From the sequence record OR896835.1: a stretch of 47,574 nucleotides of DNA; one strand, given 5' to 3'. The stretch comes from Escherichia phage RobRod40. Shown here in pieces: positions 1-47,041 of this stretch; the first letter of the stretch is position 1, and each line of letters opens with the position of its first letter. The position numbers and the translations under genes were made by a program. Under the pieces are notes generated by a model that saw nothing but the letters and a program-made list of their open reading frames with translations, did not search any database and was not told the origin of the DNA.

Positions 1-1572
1 ATGAGTGATTTAATCGTCTGGGATGAACTGACATACGCAGAAAAGATGGCTATCAAGGCCATCTCTGAGCATAGTTTCGAGGGGTTCTTGCGGTGCTTCT
101 TCCAGATAACTCAGGGTGAGAGATTTAAAATGAATTGGCATGCGAAGTACCTTTGCCGCGTCATAGATGAGATTCTTGAGGGTAAGAGAAAGGACACCAT
201 CATAAACGTAGCTCCCGGATCAGCCAAAACAGAACTATTTAGCATTCACTTCCCTGTATATAGCATGATTAAGATTAAGAAGGTCAGGAATCTTAGCTTG
301 TCATTCTCTGACTCATTGGTTAAGCGTAACTCTAAGCGCGTTCGTGACCTGATTAAGTCAAAGGAATTCCAGGAACTATGGCCATGCTCCTTCGGAACGT
401 GCAGGGATGACGAGATTCAGGTACTGGATGAGAATGGTAAAGTTAGGTTTGAATCTATATCTAAGGCGATGGCTGGACAGGTGACGGGAAGTAGGGGTGG
501 ATACATGACTGACGATTATAGTGGCTGCATAATGCTGGATGACCCACTAAAACCTGATGACGCGCTAAGTAATGTAAGAAGAGAGGCTGTCAATATGCTT
601 CTCAAGAACACAATTCGTTCACGTCGAGCTAGCTCAGTAAAGGGAAAGGAAACGCCAATACTTGCCGTGCAGCAAAGACTTCATGTTCTGGACACTAGCA
701 ACTTCATGGAGTCAGGGAAAATGGGCATCAAGTTCGACGTAGTGAAAGTTCCAGCCATAGTCACAGAGGATTACGCCGACACGCTTCCTGAGTGGATCAG
801 GCAACAATTTATTGATGATGTTCTTTCATCACCATTTGTAGAGCGTGATGGTGTTAAGTATTACAGCTACTTTCCGGAAAAGGAGTCAATAGAAGACTTG
901 ATGGCCATGCGGGATGCTGACCCGTATACATTCCTAAGTCAGTACGCTCAAGAACCTGTAGCACTAGGTGGCAACCTAATCAACGTAGATTGGTTCCAGA
1001 GAATTAGCGATACGTTCAGGAACCCAGTTAAGTACGATTATAGATTCATAACTTGCGATACTGCGATGACTACAAAGAGTTATAGTGACTTCTCCGTGCT
1101 TCAGTTGTGGGGATATAAGGATGCTAAGATTTACCTGATAGACCAGCGCAGGGGCAAATGGGAGGCACCAGAGTTGGAAGCTGAACTACTCGATTTTGAG
1201 AAGAAATCAAGGGCAACCAGTCAGTCAGATGGCATCCTTCGAAAAATTATCATCGAGAAGAAAGCTTCTGGTATCGGCCTGATTCAATCGGCAGGTAGGG
1301 TAATGCGAACGCCGATAGAGCCATACGTTCCGGATAACGATAAGCTGACTCGCGTAATGAGCGCATTGCCACAAATTAAAGCTGGTAACGTAGTTCTTCC
1401 AGAATCAGCACCATGGCTAAGCGGATTACTTACGGAGATTGCGGCCTTTACGGCAGACGACTCACATAAGCATGATGACCAAATTGACTGTCTAACAATG
1501 GCGGTAAACCTTGTTCTCAATATAGCAGATGATCCAAAATCAAGAATGCTTCGCCTTGCCGGAATAAAATAG
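1..1572 (+). CDS. terminase large subunit
   Basis: 523-aa ORF starting at window base 1; P-loop-like segment VAPGSAKT near N-terminus; sits directly upstream of portal and (circularly) downstream of terS-like gene and HNH at window end. Confidence 0.8.
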   Translation: MSDLIVWDELTYAEKMAIKAISEHSFEGFLRCFFQITQGERFKMNWHAKYLCRVIDEILEGKRKDTIINVAPGSAKTELFSIHFPVYSMIKIKKVRNLSLSFSDSLVKRNSKRVRDLIKSKEFQELWPCSFGTCRDDEIQVLDENGKVRFESISKAMAGQVTGSRGGYMTDDYSGCIMLDDPLKPDDALSNVRREAVNMLLKNTIRSRRASSVKGKETPILAVQQRLHVLDTSNFMESGKMGIKFDVVKVPAIVTEDYADTLPEWIRQQFIDDVLSSPFVERDGVKYYSYFPEKESIEDLMAMRDADPYTFLSQYAQEPVALGGNLINVDWFQRISDTFRNPVKYDYRFITCDTAMTTKSYSDFSVLQLWGYKDAKIYLIDQRRGKWEAPELEAELLDFEKKSRATSQSDGILRKIIIEKKASGIGLIQSAGRVMRTPIEPYVPDNDKLTRVMSALPQIKAGNVVLPESAPWLSGLLTEIAAFTADDSHKHDDQIDCLTMAVNLVLNIADDPKSRMLRLAGIK

Positions 1573-1612
1573 CACTTTATGCAAAGAATAAAGCTCACGG
1601 ATGAGCTAACAT
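1569..1612 (+). promoter_or_regulatory. conserved promoter-like module (variant ATAGCAC-ttt-ATGCAAAG, 22 bp, TAACAT)
   Basis: terL stop TAG embedded in motif; spacer holds palindrome GCTCAcggaTGAGC; precedes HNH paralog 1. Confidence 0.5.
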
Positions 1613-1635
1613 AATCAAAAAAAAGAGGGTGTATT

Positions 1636-2112
1636 ATGAATTGGGCTGAATTTTTTAGATACGAAGATGGAAATCTGGTAAGGGTTATCACAACCTCAAG
1701 TAGAGCTATTGAGGGCATGGTTGCTGGAAGCTTGCCTGGCAATGGCTATCTGCACATAAGAATAGGCGACAGGCGTGTAAAAAACCATCGCATAATTTGG
1801 GAGATGCACAATGGAAGGATACCAGAAGGGATGGAGATATATCATATCAATCACATAAAGACAGATAACAGGATCGAGAATTTAAGGCTCGTAAGTCACA
1901 AACAGAACCTATCAAACGCATCGCTTAGGTCCGACTCGTCAACTGGTACGAGTGGCGTTAGTTGGAACAGAAACAGGCAGAAGTGGCACGCTTATATAAA
2001 GTCTAACTACAAGAGGATGCACATAGGATTTTTTGATTCCTTTGATAACGCCGTAGCAGCAAGAAAGAAAAAGGAGATTGAACTGGGATTTCATGAGAAT
2101 CACGGAAAATAG
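1636..2112 (+). CDS. HNH homing endonuclease (paralog 1)
   Basis: MNW..F.Y.DG N-terminus, WEMHNG and HINHIKTDNRIENLR motifs; RBS AAGAGGG upstream; shares these motifs with three other ORFs in window. Confidence 0.85.
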   Translation: MNWAEFFRYEDGNLVRVITTSSRAIEGMVAGSLPGNGYLHIRIGDRRVKNHRIIWEMHNGRIPEGMEIYHINHIKTDNRIENLRLVSHKQNLSNASLRSDSSTGTSGVSWNRNRQKWHAYIKSNYKRMHIGFFDSFDNAVAARKKKEIELGFHENHGK

Positions 2113-2152
2113 CACTAATTGCTAAACATCAACACCAAGTATGGAGTATAGT
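2109..2152 (+). promoter_or_regulatory. conserved promoter-like module (ATAGCAC-taa-TTGCTAAA, 22 bp, TATAGT)
   Basis: Stop TAG of HNH embedded; followed by TACCTCACGAAAACGAG leader and RBS. Confidence 0.6.
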
Positions 2153-2183
2153 TACCTCACGAAAACGAGAGGAGAAAAGACAA

Positions 2184-2570
2184 ATGAAAAGCATTTCAAA
2201 AGCTGTATATCTTGGCAACACTAATGGGGAGTATTATGGTTTTACTGTAGGTAATACATATAGTGTTAAATATTTTGAAGCTATAAGTGAAAACTGTTTT
2301 TGGTGTTCAGATGATGATGGTGTTTACCGATATGTCAAAAACGGACCATTGCACAAGTTTAAACTAAGTGATGAGGATGGCTATTTTGTAACTGAGGCTG
2401 AATGCGAAGTCATGCCCCCTATAGACGATAAAAAACCCGAGCTTAGATATTACATCAACGGACATGAGGTTGACGTGATTGAGTTCGGAAATGTTGGCCG
2501 TACTGTATATGAGCTTGATCGGGATGGCATAAAGTGCGACACAATCAAGTTCGAAGTAAAATTCGAGTAA
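2184..2570 (+). CDS. hypothetical protein (accessory gene between HNH and portal)
   Basis: 128-aa ORF with RBS GAGAGGAG; own upstream promoter-like module and downstream terminator. Confidence 0.6.
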   Translation: MKSISKAVYLGNTNGEYYGFTVGNTYSVKYFEAISENCFWCSDDDGVYRYVKNGPLHKFKLSDEDGYFVTEAECEVMPPIDDKKPELRYYINGHEVDVIEFGNVGRTVYELDRDGIKCDTIKFEVKFE

Positions 2571-2592
2571 CCATAAAAGCTATGATAAACTA

Positions 2593-2616
2593 AGCCCCTA
2601 TATGGGGCTTTTTTAT
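2593..2616 (+). terminator. rho-independent terminator
   Basis: GC hairpin AGCCCC-tata-GGGGCT followed by T-run. Confidence 0.7.
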
Positions 2617-2627
2617 TGGAGAAAAAC

Positions 2628-45939: not shown

Positions 45940-46106
45940 TAACCACGTAGACAAAACGAGGCCACCAAGTGGCAACGGCGCACGGAGCGCAACTACTAAG
46001 TCCGTTGCTCATTAAGTAGCGTATACGGCATTAAGACCTAGCGCAAATAGGCAGATTAACCGGCTGTATCAGGCAGCCCCGGAGCCGTAACCGGGACTCA
46101 TTAAAA

Positions 46107-46184
46107 GCTCTGCTAGCTCAATTGGATAGCAGCAACGACCTTCTAAGTCGTAGGTTACTGGTTCGAATCCAGTGCGGAGCGCCA
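46107..46184 (+). tRNA. tRNA-Arg (anticodon UCU), including encoded CCA
   Basis: Hand-folded cloverleaf: 7-bp acceptor stem GCTCTGC/GCGGAGC (one G-U), anticodon stem ACGAC/GTCGT with loop CTTCTAA, T-arm ACTGG-TTCGAAT-CCAGT, discriminator G then CCA. Confidence 0.75.
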
Positions 46185-46199
46185 ATAAAGGAGTTCATT

Positions 46200-46382
46200 A
46201 TGTGGGATGTGAAGTTGTCCATTCGCTTAATGGGCCGCTCATGCAAGAATTGCACTCAAGATTACATCGCGTCAGTTGCCGCAATTAGCGCTGAGGATGC
46301 GGTAGCGAAAGTAAAGGAGATGTCAGGCGCTGACCCTGATACTCACAAATTCCTGGTAGCTTACGTTCGTGAGCTAAAGTAA
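46200..46382 (+). CDS. hypothetical protein
   Basis: 60-aa ORF starting 15 nt after tRNA with RBS AAAGGAG; track ORF 46122..46382 extension overlaps the tRNA and is rejected. Confidence 0.45.
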   Translation: MWDVKLSIRLMGRSCKNCTQDYIASVAAISAEDAVAKVKEMSGADPDTHKFLVAYVRELK

Positions 46383-46425
46383 AAAGTGTTATACCCTCGT
46401 TAAGTTTCGTTTCTCTCGTTGTTTT

Positions 46426-46450
46426 TAGCCCTCGCTTGAGGGCTTTTTTT
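46426..46450 (+). terminator. rho-independent terminator
   Basis: AGCCCT-cgcttg-AGGGCT then TTTTTTT. Confidence 0.7.
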
Positions 46451-46470
46451 CGTCTGTAATATGGTATAAT
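46442..46470 (+). promoter_or_regulatory. candidate promoter with perfect -10 TATAAT upstream of terS
   Basis: TATAAT at 46465-46470 directly after terminator; AACAAAGGAGGA RBS. Confidence 0.3.
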
Positions 46471-46494
46471 CTGGCATCAACAAAGGAGGATTAA

Positions 46495-47001
46495 ATGAGC
46501 AAAGCAGCATTAAAGATGGGCGAAGGAAATTTTAAGGCGCTCTACAACAAGAAGTATGGCGATATTGCTATGGTGGCGATCAACCGCAAGTACACGCCGG
46601 AAGAGGTGTTTGATTTCGCGGTGAGATACTTCTCCTGGGCAGAGAGTGAAGCAATCAAAGCAATTGAGACGGCGGCATTCCAGGGCGTGGTTAGTGAAAG
46701 CCTTGTGCACAAGCCGCGCGTGTTCACCTTAACAGGACTGGCACTCTTCATTGGTGTTAACATCAATAGATTTGCTCGCTGGCGTACTGAGGCTGGATAC
46801 TCTGATGTGATGGAATTCATTGATAACGTAATCTACGAGCAGAAATATCAGCTTGGCGTTGCAGGCATCATCAACTCCACCATCGTTGGTAAAGAGCTTG
46901 GTATTGATAAGCCGCAGGAAATCACAATTAGCAACAACTCCACAGCTAACGACGTTGATAGTATGAAGGAAGCGCTGGAGTCTGTGATTAGTAAGCTATA
47001 G
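46495..47001 (+). CDS. putative terminase small subunit
   Basis: 168-aa ORF with RBS AAAGGAGGA and TATAAT promoter; located just upstream (circularly) of terL. Confidence 0.5.
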   Translation: MSKAALKMGEGNFKALYNKKYGDIAMVAINRKYTPEEVFDFAVRYFSWAESEAIKAIETAAFQGVVSESLVHKPRVFTLTGLALFIGVNINRFARWRTEAGYSDVMEFIDNVIYEQKYQLGVAGIINSTIVGKELGIDKPQEITISNNSTANDVDSMKEALESVISKL

Positions 47002-47041
47002 CACTTTTTGTTAAAAGAAGAGGCTCAATCAATGAGATAAT
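46998..47041 (+). promoter_or_regulatory. conserved promoter-like module (ATAGCAC-ttt-TTGTTAAA, 22 bp, GATAAT)
   Basis: terS stop TAG embedded; spacer palindrome CTCAatcaaTGAG; precedes HNH paralog 4. Confidence 0.55.

Follow-up and report, generated by a model that had tools for sequence, protein, structure and literature searches.

MarA, SoxS and Rob, AraC-family activators of E. coli involved in stress and antibiotic resistance, bind as single molecules to the marbox, and all three act on the same sites. In class II mar/sox/rob promoters the marbox is in forward orientation and overlaps the -35 region (PMC12052159), and in the class II complex seen by cryo-EM the centre of the micF site falls near -41 (PMC8811837). 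Reading the gap between the 18-mer and the -10 hexamer directly from K-12, we found 20 nt in micF, nfo, inaA and sodA, and 19 nt in fumC, 1 nt off the spacing described below; the micF hexamer, TAGAAT, lies 7 nt before the annotated RNA start. Among T1-like phages, the authors of TLS (2024) already reported the repeat studied here and left its function open; what is new is that, judged by its sequence, this repeat is the E. coli marbox. Besides, in a Keio-collection screen with the T1-like phage LL5 (>90% identical to TLS) the main text names only LPS genes, tolC, secB and ppiB; that text does not mention rob, marA or soxS, so that, as far as it goes, none of the three is likely to be essential singly for plating.

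Results

The window, i.e. the whole analysed stretch of 47,574 nucleotides, is a complete Rtp-like Drexlerviridae genome (T1-like, Rtp-type coliphage). The original prediction described a near-palindromic motif, ATAGCAC-N3-TTGYTAAA, recurring genome-wide with a -10-like hexamer 22 bp downstream. The recurrence is confirmed: with up to 3 mismatches allowed, ATAGCACNNNTTGYTAAA is present in 20 copies against 3.86 expected in the whole window, a count reached in 0 of 100 shuffled genomes, and the core TAGCA-N5-TGCTA in 7 copies against 0.13. One additional copy, preceding an HNH gene (29961-30004, minus strand), had been overlooked. The reported embedding of stop codons also stands, the TAG of aTAGcac being the stop of the upstream ORF in 9 of the 20 copies; one copy has a TAA stop inside the motif, and 5 further ones a TAA or TAG ending 1-2 nt upstream of it.

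Of the 19 window copies that the scan collected, 14 have their best -10-like hexamer exactly 20 nt downstream of the 18-mer, which is the announced spacing, since 20 nt after the 18-mer is 22 nt after TTGYTA. The offset of 20 also predominates in Rtp, T1 and TLS, and about 80% of the copies across five genomes have a sigma70-type -10 at this fixed distance. Copies off by one (30467; 41371-41388, minus strand) and one without canonical hexamer (28466) are as first described. Hexamer conservation concerns A2 and T6, the same positions as in sigma70 -10 boxes, the consensus being TAnnnT with an extended TGn in some modules. Also supported is the view that the motif does not represent a sigma70 -35 box: 22 bp separate TTGYTA from the hexamer, and canonical -35/-10 pairs show no enrichment in 28-47.5 kb (30 vs 39.5 expected) or in 1-14 kb (19 vs 22.1 expected). 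Assuming, as for all layout coordinates here, a transcription start about 7 nt after the hexamer, the motif centre would fall near -42, which supports the class II activator-like position proposed. Directly 3' of the discriminator is a conserved leader, (C)CATCGAAACGA, and in about two thirds of the modules a copy-specific, sense-strand-biased hairpin encloses the -10 hexamer; the original prediction remarked on neither. Every hexamer-bearing module is oriented toward its downstream gene. That the modules are promoters, as had been proposed, is supported.

TAGCAC-N3-TTGC superficially resembles the sigma54 (-24/-12) consensus TGGCAC-N5-TTGC. However, the spacer is 3 nt instead of 5 in every copy, which contradicts this reading and had rightly been pointed out; moreover the GG of -24 is replaced by AG (81 of 82 modules have A at position 3), the conserved hexamer 20 nt downstream would stay unexplained, and no enhancer-binding ATPase turned up in the proteins scanned. 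A sigma54-type promoter is hardly credible.

Module density is highest in the early gene clusters, at either end of the genome, and before replication and recombination genes, and only two copies lie inside the 20-kb structural module; this distribution does not fit the "middle/late regulon" initially envisaged. A weak module, made of the marbox-like ATAGCACTTTATGCAAAG, 20 nt and TAACAT (1569-1612, plus strand), precedes the HNH gene 1636-2112 and has the terL stop TAG inside its motif. ATAGCACTAATTGCTAAA with TATAGT at 20 nt (2109-2152, plus) stands before 2184-2570, where the structural block begins, and ATAGCACTTTTTGCTAAA with the same hexamer at 20 nt (11814-11857, plus) before 11891-12277, directly 3' of an intrinsic terminator (11786-11805). 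Further on, ATAGCACGAATAGCTAAA with TATTAT at 21 nt (23214-23258, minus) precedes the Cor-like lipoprotein region, and ATAGCACGAATTGCTAAA with TATGAT at 20 nt (24885-24928, plus) the Erf-like gene 24958-25608, its -10 being inside a hairpin. The marbox 28466-28483 (plus) is an orphan, the hexamer scan giving no -10 at offset 20; it adjoins, in reverse orientation, the upstream side of the tail-fibre start (minus strand), and is conserved in Rtp (33762) and T1 (34902).

The copy that had been overlooked combines GCAGCACGAAAAGCTAAA with CATAAT at 20 nt (29961-30004, minus) before the HNH gene 29450-29929; it sits within the 3' end of an HTH gene, and its hairpin and T-run also score as an intrinsic terminator. 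Divergent from this HTH gene, ATAGCATTTTTTGTTAAA with TAGTAT at 19 nt (30467-30510, plus) precedes the helicase 30556-32550. Then come, on the plus strand and all at 20 nt, ATAGCACGAATTGCTAAA with TATTAT (32968-33011, before 33048-33251; 14-bp hairpin around the -10), ATAGCACTTTTTGTTAAA with TATATT (33864-33907, before 33938-34135) and ATAGCACTTTTTGCCTAA with CATAAT (35974-36017, before 36059-36235; hairpin within the spacer). On the minus strand, ATAGCACAAATTGATAAT with an extended -10, TGaTATAAT, at 20 nt (39400-39443) precedes the gene of a 527-aa helicase-like protein (37786-39369), ATAGCACTAATTGCTAAA with TATATT at 20 nt (39831-39874) precedes 39444-39794 and carries a terminator-like hairpin, gcccttcggggctttt, in its spacer, and the first leftward module, ATAGCACTTTTTGTTAAA with TATAGT at 21 nt (41344-41388), precedes 41125-41304.

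The first left-end gene (42015-42539) offers a comparator: it is preceded by a canonical sigma70 promoter without marbox, TTGACT-17-TATAAT (41948-41976, plus), followed by the same leader (gacaatCATCGAAAC) at the same distance as in the modules. The remaining modules are on the plus strand with 20-nt gaps: ATAGCACGAATTGCCAAA with TGaTATAGT (43060-43103, before 43143-43886), ATAGCACGTTTTGTTAAA with TATAAT (43883-43926; long-range hairpin agggga...tcccc around the -10), ACAGCACGAATTGCTAAA with TATAGT (44335-44378, before 44408-44638, DUF7180), ATAGCACTAATTGTTAAA with TGtTATAGT (44778-44821, before 44852-45097; hairpin ggggtaa/ttacccc), ATAGCACCAATTGCTAAA with TATAAT (45521-45564, before 45595-45831) and ATAGCACTTTTTGTTAAA with GATAAT (46998-47041), before an HNH gene running from 47070 off the window end.

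Another reading is that the motif acts negatively or at the RNA level and is not bound by an activator; it would then be a stoperator-like repressor roadblock, or a transcript signal for processing or antitermination made of a UAGCA/UGCUA mini-hairpin and the larger hairpin. The sites are indeed oriented, numerous and intergenic, as the TLS authors noted for L5 stoperators, the sense-strand-biased hairpin after the motif is real, and the orphan 28466, which lacks a -10 at module spacing, is reversed in the tail-fibre 5' region. However, the fixed 20-nt distance in most copies of the five genomes points to a promoter element acting at the DNA level, the UAGCA/UGCUA stem is possible in only about 60% of copies, the phage is virulent with no repressor identified, and no Rfam family matched. 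We regard such an element as very unlikely.

The 18-mer consensus of the literature, extended by a position 19 that we take to belong to it (AYNGCACNNWNNRYYAAAY), has 18 matches with at most one mismatch in the window, against 1.04 expected. The published marbox pattern GCANNWWNTGNNAAA (PMC12052159) has 16 exact matches against 1.06. Both published patterns were derived independently of this window. With a matrix built solely from six E. coli K-12 marboxes, 22 matches reach at least 12 bits against 2.07 expected; 16 of its top 18 matches are modules, at 13.5-16.5 bits, the E. coli marboxes themselves scoring 12.9-17.7 bits. In the 82 modules pooled for position statistics, the free positions, i.e. 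those not used in collecting them, match the marbox consensus: W at positions 9 (98%) and 10 (100%), Y at position 14 (95%). The invariant A3, T11 and T12 agree with the ChIP-exo SoxS motif AYRGCAYWAWWTRYYAAW. The mar promoter's own marbox, ATGCCACGTTTTGCTAAATC, is closely similar to the phage copies: it follows the phage consensus, CACnnnTTGYTAAA, from position 5 on, and differs from the 43883 copy solely at the variable Y position. Nevertheless the phage motif is much more uniform than host marboxes, and position 19 is A where the 20-bp marbox consensus has Y (agreement in only 22% of modules); uniformity and A19 both count against a reading by host activators.

The dimer palindrome initially proposed is not sustained by these modules, in which conservation is asymmetric: complementarity is 0% for pair (7,11), 2% for (1,17) and 60% for (4,14). 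This pattern is expected of a two-HTH monomer, not of a dimer. By sequence, by orientation and by distance to the -10, which matches micF, nfo, inaA and sodA, the motif is the host marbox and not the phage-specific site first supposed.

Alternatively, no activator would be needed if host RNA polymerase touched the motif directly, by an UP-element-like alpha C-terminal domain contact or some unusual contact by sigma, with the -10, extended or not, doing the remaining work. Several modules carry the extended -10 TGnTATAAT, able to function in the absence of a -35, short A-tracts flank the motif (aAATAGCAC ... TAAAA), the UP-element idea was raised by the TLS authors, and fast growth in unstressed cells is compatible with it, as is the negative LL5 screen, within its main text. 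Conversely, TGn is found in only 5 of the 20 window copies, and the detailed marbox fit with exact micF-type spacing would be left unexplained. Besides, G4, C5, C7 and G13 are invariant, whereas UP elements are A/T tracts (Estrem/Gourse consensus). Direct contact by the polymerase seems to us distinctly unlikely.

The same module, with the same geometry, recurs in the related phages compared, Rtp, T1, TLS and Klebsiella phage Sweeny (14 exact matches in Sweeny, against 0.33 expected). In each phage the first gene is under a canonical promoter and later ones under marbox promoters; this conserved layout would suit a phage-made early factor too, which counts against host activators. Modules were also found in a Drexlerviridae phage recorded on Vibrio cholerae, an observation that counts in the same direction.

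A six-frame search detected no MarA/SoxS/Rob homologue in this phage, Rtp, T1 or TLS (best E-value 0.16), and the TLS authors (2024) found no RNA polymerase or sigma gene in TLS. Of the two HTH readers originally suggested, 34843-35973 has no HTH; it is a homologue of T1 gp16 with a weak calcineurin-like phosphoesterase match. The other, a conserved Cro/cI-type single-HTH protein of 157 aa (29981-30454, minus; T1 gp23 family), is the one candidate DNA binder that we found among the phage-encoded proteins. Proteins of this type generally have symmetric operators, and it does not fit the asymmetric motif. The promoters could still be as described with their motif read by this protein, or by an unrecognised small early protein, the marbox likeness being convergence or mimicry. 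Each relative examined has retained the HTH protein (identity to the Rtp, T1 and TLS proteins 46-97%; 109 homologues, nearly all on T1-like phage contigs) and its fold is confident (predicted structure, pLDDT 88); the motif has a partial dyad, TAGCA-N5-TGCTA, whose half-sites are spaced by one helical turn; a canonical first promoter followed by motif promoters is how an early-to-middle cascade is laid out; modules are retained in the phage recorded on Vibrio; and the main text of the LL5 screen reports no single host marbox-activator gene. On the other hand, the lack of complementarity at C7/T11 and A1/A17, with 60% at G4/N14, is unlike a symmetric Cro-type operator, the free positions obey marbox rules, and a -10 spacing equal to that of E. 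coli class II promoters must then be coincidence. The HTH gene is mid-genome, yet the motif already serves the early clusters at either end. The first left-end product is poorly conserved (18-50% identity, 3 invariant columns) and therefore an unlikely reader of an invariant 18-mer, and no DNA-binding signature was seen in the other conserved early proteins. A phage-encoded reader is thus possible, though unlikely.

Discussion

The reading that we favour, with a probability of roughly 0.6, is that the modules are class II sigma70 promoters recruiting host Rob, MarA or SoxS. The asymmetric marbox would lie forward between about -50 and -33, a stretch that a -35 box would ordinarily overlap, followed by 20 nt of otherwise unconstrained spacer, the -10 hexamer, a C-rich discriminator, the leader, a Shine-Dalgarno sequence and the start codon. 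Occupied by Rob, which is constitutive, and/or by stress-induced MarA/SoxS, it would let the bound activator contact sigma70 region 4 and one alpha C-terminal domain, and host RNA polymerase would be recruited as at micF; the first left-end gene, with its ordinary -35/-10 promoter, would not need the activator. The free spacer and discriminator also encode the RNA hairpin, in some copies a complete intrinsic terminator, which can form only in read-through transcripts from upstream, and each module would therefore be a compact stop/insulator-promoter-leader cassette. Binding and activation by MarA/SoxS/Rob, the start positions and the role of the hairpin are what we infer from the DNA.

Unstressed laboratory cells contain little MarA or SoxS and keep most of their Rob inactive. 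The fast growth of T1-like phages in such cultures counts against host activators, as does the fact that a consensus match is not occupancy.

Activation by the host proteins nonetheless gives the best reading of the modules, as the main promoters of the phage, of an activator-dependent "class II mar/sox/rob" sigma70 type. This suggests a virus that may run most of its genes through MarA, SoxS and Rob of its host.

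A promoter-like module repeated along the genome

The window looks like a complete 47.6-kb genome with the large terminase gene placed first. By megablast it is closest to the Rtp group of T1-like coliphages (Drexlerviridae, Braunvirinae), with 87% identity to phages AugustePiccard and Rtp. The recurrence on which the original prediction rested is well above chance: ATAGCACNNNTTGYTAAA, with at most three mismatches, has 20 matches in the window for 3.9 expected, and the core TAGCA-N5-TGCTA has seven for 0.13 expected. Once the copies are aligned in the orientation of the motif, the 18-mer ATAGCAC-N3-TTGYTAAA is followed by a variable spacer of 20 nt, a hexamer, about 6 nt rich in C, the conserved block CATCGAAACGA and a Shine-Dalgarno sequence; the start codon comes 67-89 nt beyond the first base of the motif in the window modules. 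In the aligned copies T1, A2 and T6 of the hexamer are conserved, as is typical of a sigma70 -10. Of the 19 window copies gathered in the spacing scan, 14 have 20 nt between the 18-mer and the hexamer, an offset that is also the commonest in the relatives Rtp, T1 and TLS; the fixed distance noticed at first is confirmed, as are two copies off by one and the copy at 28466 that lacks a hexamer. The stop codons of upstream genes, described as often embedded in the motif, lie within it or abut it in 15 copies out of 20. All 19 hexamer-bearing window copies point at the downstream gene; one extra copy, at 29961-30004 (-), was absent from the initial list.

A canonical sigma70 promoter would place a -35 box 17 ± 1 bp from the -10; here TTGYTA stands 22 bp upstream of it. 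Besides, canonical -35/-10 pairs are without enrichment both between 28 and 47.5 kb (30 found, 39.5 expected) and between 1 and 14 kb (19 found, 22.1 expected). Because ordinary pairs are nowhere enriched, the modules are the main promoter-like signal of this genome, and they are almost certainly the principal promoters of the phage. The sigma54 consensus (TGGCAC-N5-TTGC, with GG and GC 10 bp apart) does not account for the motif either, all copies having N3 and AG for GG. The modules extend to the Klebsiella Webervirus phage Sweeny, where 14 exact copies are found for 0.33 expected, with the same geometry and the same leader as in the window.

Of four scattered HNH endonuclease-like genes (1636-2112, 10563-11096, 29450-29929 and 47070-47574), three have a module of their own directly upstream, as if the promoter travelled along with these mobile genes or was acquired by them. 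The ORF found at the expected distance past the module 23214-23258 (23070-23174, minus strand) is only 34 aa long, against 76 aa for the Cor-like lipoprotein rtp45 of Rtp; a frameshift, a truncation or a different start is possible.

The repeat has been described before. The 2024 re-annotation of phage TLS (Phage 2024;5:173, PMC11447400) reports 21 copies of a 21-nt direct repeat, aaATAGCACnnnTTGnTAAAA, which run with transcription about 76 nt ahead of start codons, similar repeats being noted for T1, Rtp and Rogue1. Its consensus, its orientation and its distance of about 76 nt to start codons are those of the window element. Stoperators, enhancer-binding sites and UP elements are weighed in the relevant section of that paper and none is chosen; the same section gives only three sigma70-like promoters for TLS, with no phage RNA polymerase or sigma gene, and does not mention the fixed -10, the identity with the marbox or the hairpin discussed below. 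Stoperators deserve a comparison: those of mycobacteriophage L5 are likewise many short asymmetric sites oriented with transcription, according to that section (PMC11447400), but they are repressor roadblocks of a temperate phage and, unlike the phage modules, have no -10 at a fixed distance. The sequence repeat is already published, then, whereas its class II marbox identity, the match to the geometry of micF and the hairpin appear undescribed in the literature searched. In that literature no paper links marboxes to T1-like phages, and we found neither transcriptome or start-site data for T1-like phages nor 5'-end data for any Drexlerviridae phage.

Identity of the motif with the marbox

The marbox, the E. 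coli site of the activators MarA, SoxS and Rob, is given by the Grainger laboratory as 5'-gcannwwntgnnaaa-3' (PMC12052159); a SoxS preprint quotes Martin's AYNGCACNNWNNRYYAAA together with a ChIP-exo motif, AYRGCAYWAWWTRYYAAW. The pattern gcannwwntgnnaaa has 16 exact matches in the window for 1.06 expected. The published 18-mer AYNGCACNNWNNRYYAAA, to which we added position 19 of what we take to be the 20-bp consensus (a Y), has 18 matches with at most one mismatch for 1.04 expected. Over 82 modules pooled from five phages the fit is at least 0.93 at each specified position of the 18-mer. The sole position that disagrees is this assumed position 19, which is mostly A and fits Y in only 22% of the modules. 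Positions that played no part in collecting the modules also obey the marbox rules (A/T at position 9 in 98% and at position 10 in 100%, C/T at position 14 in 95%), and the invariant A3, T11 and T12 agree with the ChIP-exo motif.

A weight matrix built only from host sites, six marboxes of E. coli K-12 (mar, micF, fumC, nfo, inaA and sodA), gives 22 window matches of 12 bits or more for 2.07 expected; 16 of its top 18 are catalogued modules, and they score 13.5-16.5 bits, in the same range as the host sites. The marbox of the mar promoter itself, ATGCCACGTTTTGCTAAATC, is identical from position 5 on to the phage consensus CACnnnTTGYTAAA. Judged by its sequence, the phage motif is the E. coli marbox, an asymmetric site that in E. 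coli binds single molecules of MarA, SoxS or Rob, which belong to the AraC family.

This asymmetry departs from the near-palindrome initially proposed. In the 82 modules mirror positions are complementary in 0% (7,11), 2% (1,17) and 60% (4,14) of cases, and the perfect dyad TAGCA-N5-TGCTA is present in only seven window copies: the apparent palindrome is incidental, and a dimer palindrome or a Cro/cI operator fails on symmetry. The site is asymmetric, as it should be for a monomer carrying two HTH motifs. Other host proteins were compared as well. The fit of Lrp, whose consensus we presume to be YAGHAWATTWTDCTR, is poorer than that of the marbox, the invariant C7 clashing with a W and the invariant A1, A17 and A18 being unaccounted for. 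The IHF and Fis consensus sequences do not fit in a comparison by eye. As for UP elements, their consensus is an A/T tract from about -57 to -38, which the invariant G4, C5, C7 and G13 of the motif do not resemble.

Geometry compared with class II promoters

In class II mar/sox/rob promoters the marbox is in forward orientation over the -35 region, centred between -36 and -55 (PMC12052159). The cryo-EM structure of the class II complex at micF (PMC8811837) shows the activator centred near -41, in contact with region 4 of sigma and with a single alpha C-terminal domain. The phage marbox is also forward and over the -35 region, with a centre that would be near -42 if transcription starts 7 nt past the hexamer. 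At K-12 micF, 20 nt separate ACAGCACTGAATGTCAAA from TAGAAT, and after another 7 nt comes the start of the RNA as annotated; at nfo, inaA and sodA the forward marbox is likewise 20 nt from a hexamer with A2 and T6, and at fumC 19 nt. All five are reportedly class II promoters in the 1999 work of Martin et al. The phage modules and these host promoters are alike in marbox sequence, forward orientation, -35 overlap and 20-nt gap (19 for fumC), and also in combining a sigma70 -10 with a -35 that is poor or missing. The match to the class II promoters of the host holds for sequence, for orientation and for spacing, three features that are separate from one another.

Differences are also apparent. 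Among themselves the phage copies hardly differ, and they come near the ideal consensus, whereas the E. coli sites are degenerate; about 20 copies are packed in the 47.6 kb of a virulent phage, unlike the mar/sox/rob regulon of E. coli; and only the phage modules have a conserved leader and, lodged within spacer and discriminator, a hairpin or terminator. From their sequence the modules would thus be a known kind of promoter, class II marbox with sigma70, in an unexpected place, and activation is predicted. The original prediction was right in seeing promoters and a motif that is not a -35 box but lies where a class II activator sits; it erred as to what kind of site this is and what probably reads it.

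Known phage systems offer partial parallels. The middle promoters of T4, which depend on MotA and AsiA (sigma appropriation), also combine a sigma70 -10, no usable -35 and an upstream activator box, and the MotA box even contains TGCT; but this box is centred near -30 and the phage motif near -42. MotA and AsiA are encoded by T4 itself, and neither has a match in Pfam or PHROGs among the 20 window proteins scanned. The CII-dependent promoters of lambda (pRE, pI and paQ) likewise have a poor -35 and need an activator that sits across the -35 region. Their site, on the other hand, is a direct repeat TTGC-N6-TTGC read by a phage-encoded tetramer, and there are three per genome against about 20 phage modules.

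One marbox stands apart from the modules. The orphan at 28466-28483 (+) has no -10 at the module spacing; in reverse orientation, it lies a few nucleotides upstream of the tail-fibre start codon, on the minus strand, and immediately downstream of a TACAAT hexamer. Because it is conserved in relatives (position 33762 of the Rtp record, L001, and 34902 of the T1 record, L002), the same factor could act there in repression or as a roadblock.

A hairpin around the -10

In the modules a copy-specific inverted repeat joins the spacer to the discriminator, for example at 32986-33025, 44796-44830 and 43901-43935 in the window and at 3553-3590 in T1 (L002). The spacer pairs with the 13 nt of its own module, counted from the last half of the hexamer, better than with those of other modules (mean -7.8 versus -4.6 kcal/mol; z = -12), none of 20,000 permutations being as good, and the effect is significant in each of four genomes. 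At least four pairs form across the hexamer in 48 of 73 modules, with the hexamer within or beside the loop. The stems vary from copy to copy (aaggcc/ggcctt, ggggtaa/ttacccc, gaggtg/cacctc), so that pairing is conserved and sequence is not. An inverted repeat might also act as a DNA cruciform, but the sense strand gives the more stable fold (-11.9 versus -8.9 kcal/mol for the antisense, p = 4e-6), with G-U making up 59 of 438 pairs, which argues for an RNA hairpin and makes the cruciform less likely.

The 3' arm of the hairpin spans about -9 to +4, and the hairpin can form only in transcripts coming from upstream. In other modules the spacer has a hairpin of its own, in some cases a full intrinsic terminator (39831-39874, for example); in T1, the modules at 39976 and 41956 have spacers that fall on terminators which the T1 record annotates. 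At 29951-29974 (-) promoter and terminator occupy the same place: the loop of the hairpin of the module 29961-30004 holds the -10 hexamer CATAAT, TTTTTT comes after the hairpin, and the whole scores as an intrinsic terminator. Rfam matched no RNA family in the window, one tRNA excepted; a tRNA-Arg (anticodon TCT) at 46107-46184 (+) overlaps a mechanically called ORF, 46122-46382.

The class II design leaves the 20-nt spacer unconstrained, and the phage may have used this freedom to place there an RNA 3'-end, a pause or a stability element. Each module would then act as a cassette made of a stop or insulator, a promoter and a leader. Such cassettes may be what physically underlies the "transcriptons", a proposal for T1 mentioned in the TLS paper's section on the matter (PMC11447400). 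The structural part of the genome (1-14000) has, for its part, 21 sites resembling intrinsic terminators for 11 expected; most are intergenic, with no promoter module downstream, and one may ask how late transcription gets past them.

Candidate readers of the motif

Two phage genes had been put forward as encoding the regulator, both on account of an HTH. The product of 29981-30454 is indeed an HTH protein, conserved family-wide, with a single Cro/cI-type domain (pLDDT 88) and best matches to the Cro proteins of Xfaso-1 and N15; but Cro/cI-type proteins usually bind symmetric operators, and the motif is asymmetric. The product of 34843-35973 does not qualify as an HTH regulator: it has a weak phosphoesterase match and is a homologue of T1 gp16. 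Apart from the Cro-type protein, the only DNA-binding signatures found by Pfam and PHROGs in the 20 window proteins scanned belong to nucleases, a methyltransferase-like protein and a partial helicase-like match. Profile and single-sequence searches with MarA, SoxS and the N-terminus of Rob found no MarA-like protein in the six-frame ORFs of the window phage, Rtp, T1 and TLS (best E = 0.16).

The first gene of the left end is served differently. Its promoter, at 41948-41976 (+), is a near-consensus TTGACT-17-TATAAT without marbox, followed at the same distance as in the modules by the same leader, CATCGAAAC, which lends indirect support to a start about 7 nt past the hexamers of the modules; in Rtp, T1, TLS and Sweeny the first gene likewise stands behind a canonical promoter without marbox. 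A canonical first promoter followed by marbox modules could suggest an early phage factor. The product of this gene (42015-42539) is a DUF7174 protein with 18-50% identity among relatives, undetectable in Sweeny; being so poorly conserved, it is an unlikely reader of an invariant 18-mer. The T1 copy (L002, 539-1114) has a weak, sub-threshold match to the anti-CRISPR AcrF2, a hint at a possible role in anti-defence. Next to this gene, between the divergent early clusters, about 550 nt (41400-41950) are non-coding and AT-rich, with short tandem repeats (attatt..., and gatacgca three times), and are probably the physical genome end, the pac region or an origin.

The host itself would supply the simplest reader, in Rob, produced constitutively, and/or in MarA and SoxS; we favour this somewhat over other possibilities. 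Counting indirectly against it, a Keio screen with the T1-like phage LL5 reported only LPS genes, tolC, secB and ppiB, and the names rob, marA and soxS are absent from the main text of that paper (PMC7229145). It is therefore likely that none of the three is singly essential. MarA, SoxS and Rob are redundant on marboxes. Against host readers also count the far greater uniformity of the motif compared with host marboxes, the fast growth of T1-like phages in unstressed cultures and the presence of modules in a Drexlerviridae phage whose recorded host is Vibrio cholerae. As to whether the motif follows enterobacterial hosts, this phage and the Klebsiella phage that has modules too point different ways.

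Implications for the Drexlerviridae

Ever since the genome of T1 was sequenced, transcription in T1-like phages has been poorly understood, and reading the modules as class II marboxes turns it into a directly testable model. In its full form, to which we give a probability of about 0.45, the Drexlerviridae (T1, TLS, Rtp and the Klebsiella Webervirus phages) would run nearly all their transcription on the host MarA, SoxS and Rob (or RamA) through some 20 class II marboxes per genome, one immediate-early promoter excepted, each promoter being fused to an insulating RNA hairpin. Their gene expression would then sense bile, antibiotics and oxidative stress, and their replicating DNA would titrate the activators and blunt host resistance, about 20 sites of predicted high affinity per replicating genome being possibly sufficient for such titration. 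To our knowledge, and in the literature searched, this would be the first virulent phage with a promoter set built round a host stress regulon.

When overexpressed, MarA, SoxS, Rob and RamA cause multidrug resistance in E. coli and Klebsiella, and Drexlerviridae, Webervirus included, belong to the phages isolated most frequently for therapeutic use. Klebsiella records number 452 among the capsid relatives, and Drexlerviridae, chiefly Webervirus, account for a substantial fraction of the isolates that have been sequenced. Should these activators drive their promoters, the phage yield would be expected to change with salicylate, with bile salts, with redox drugs and with resistance mutations in marR, ramR or soxR.
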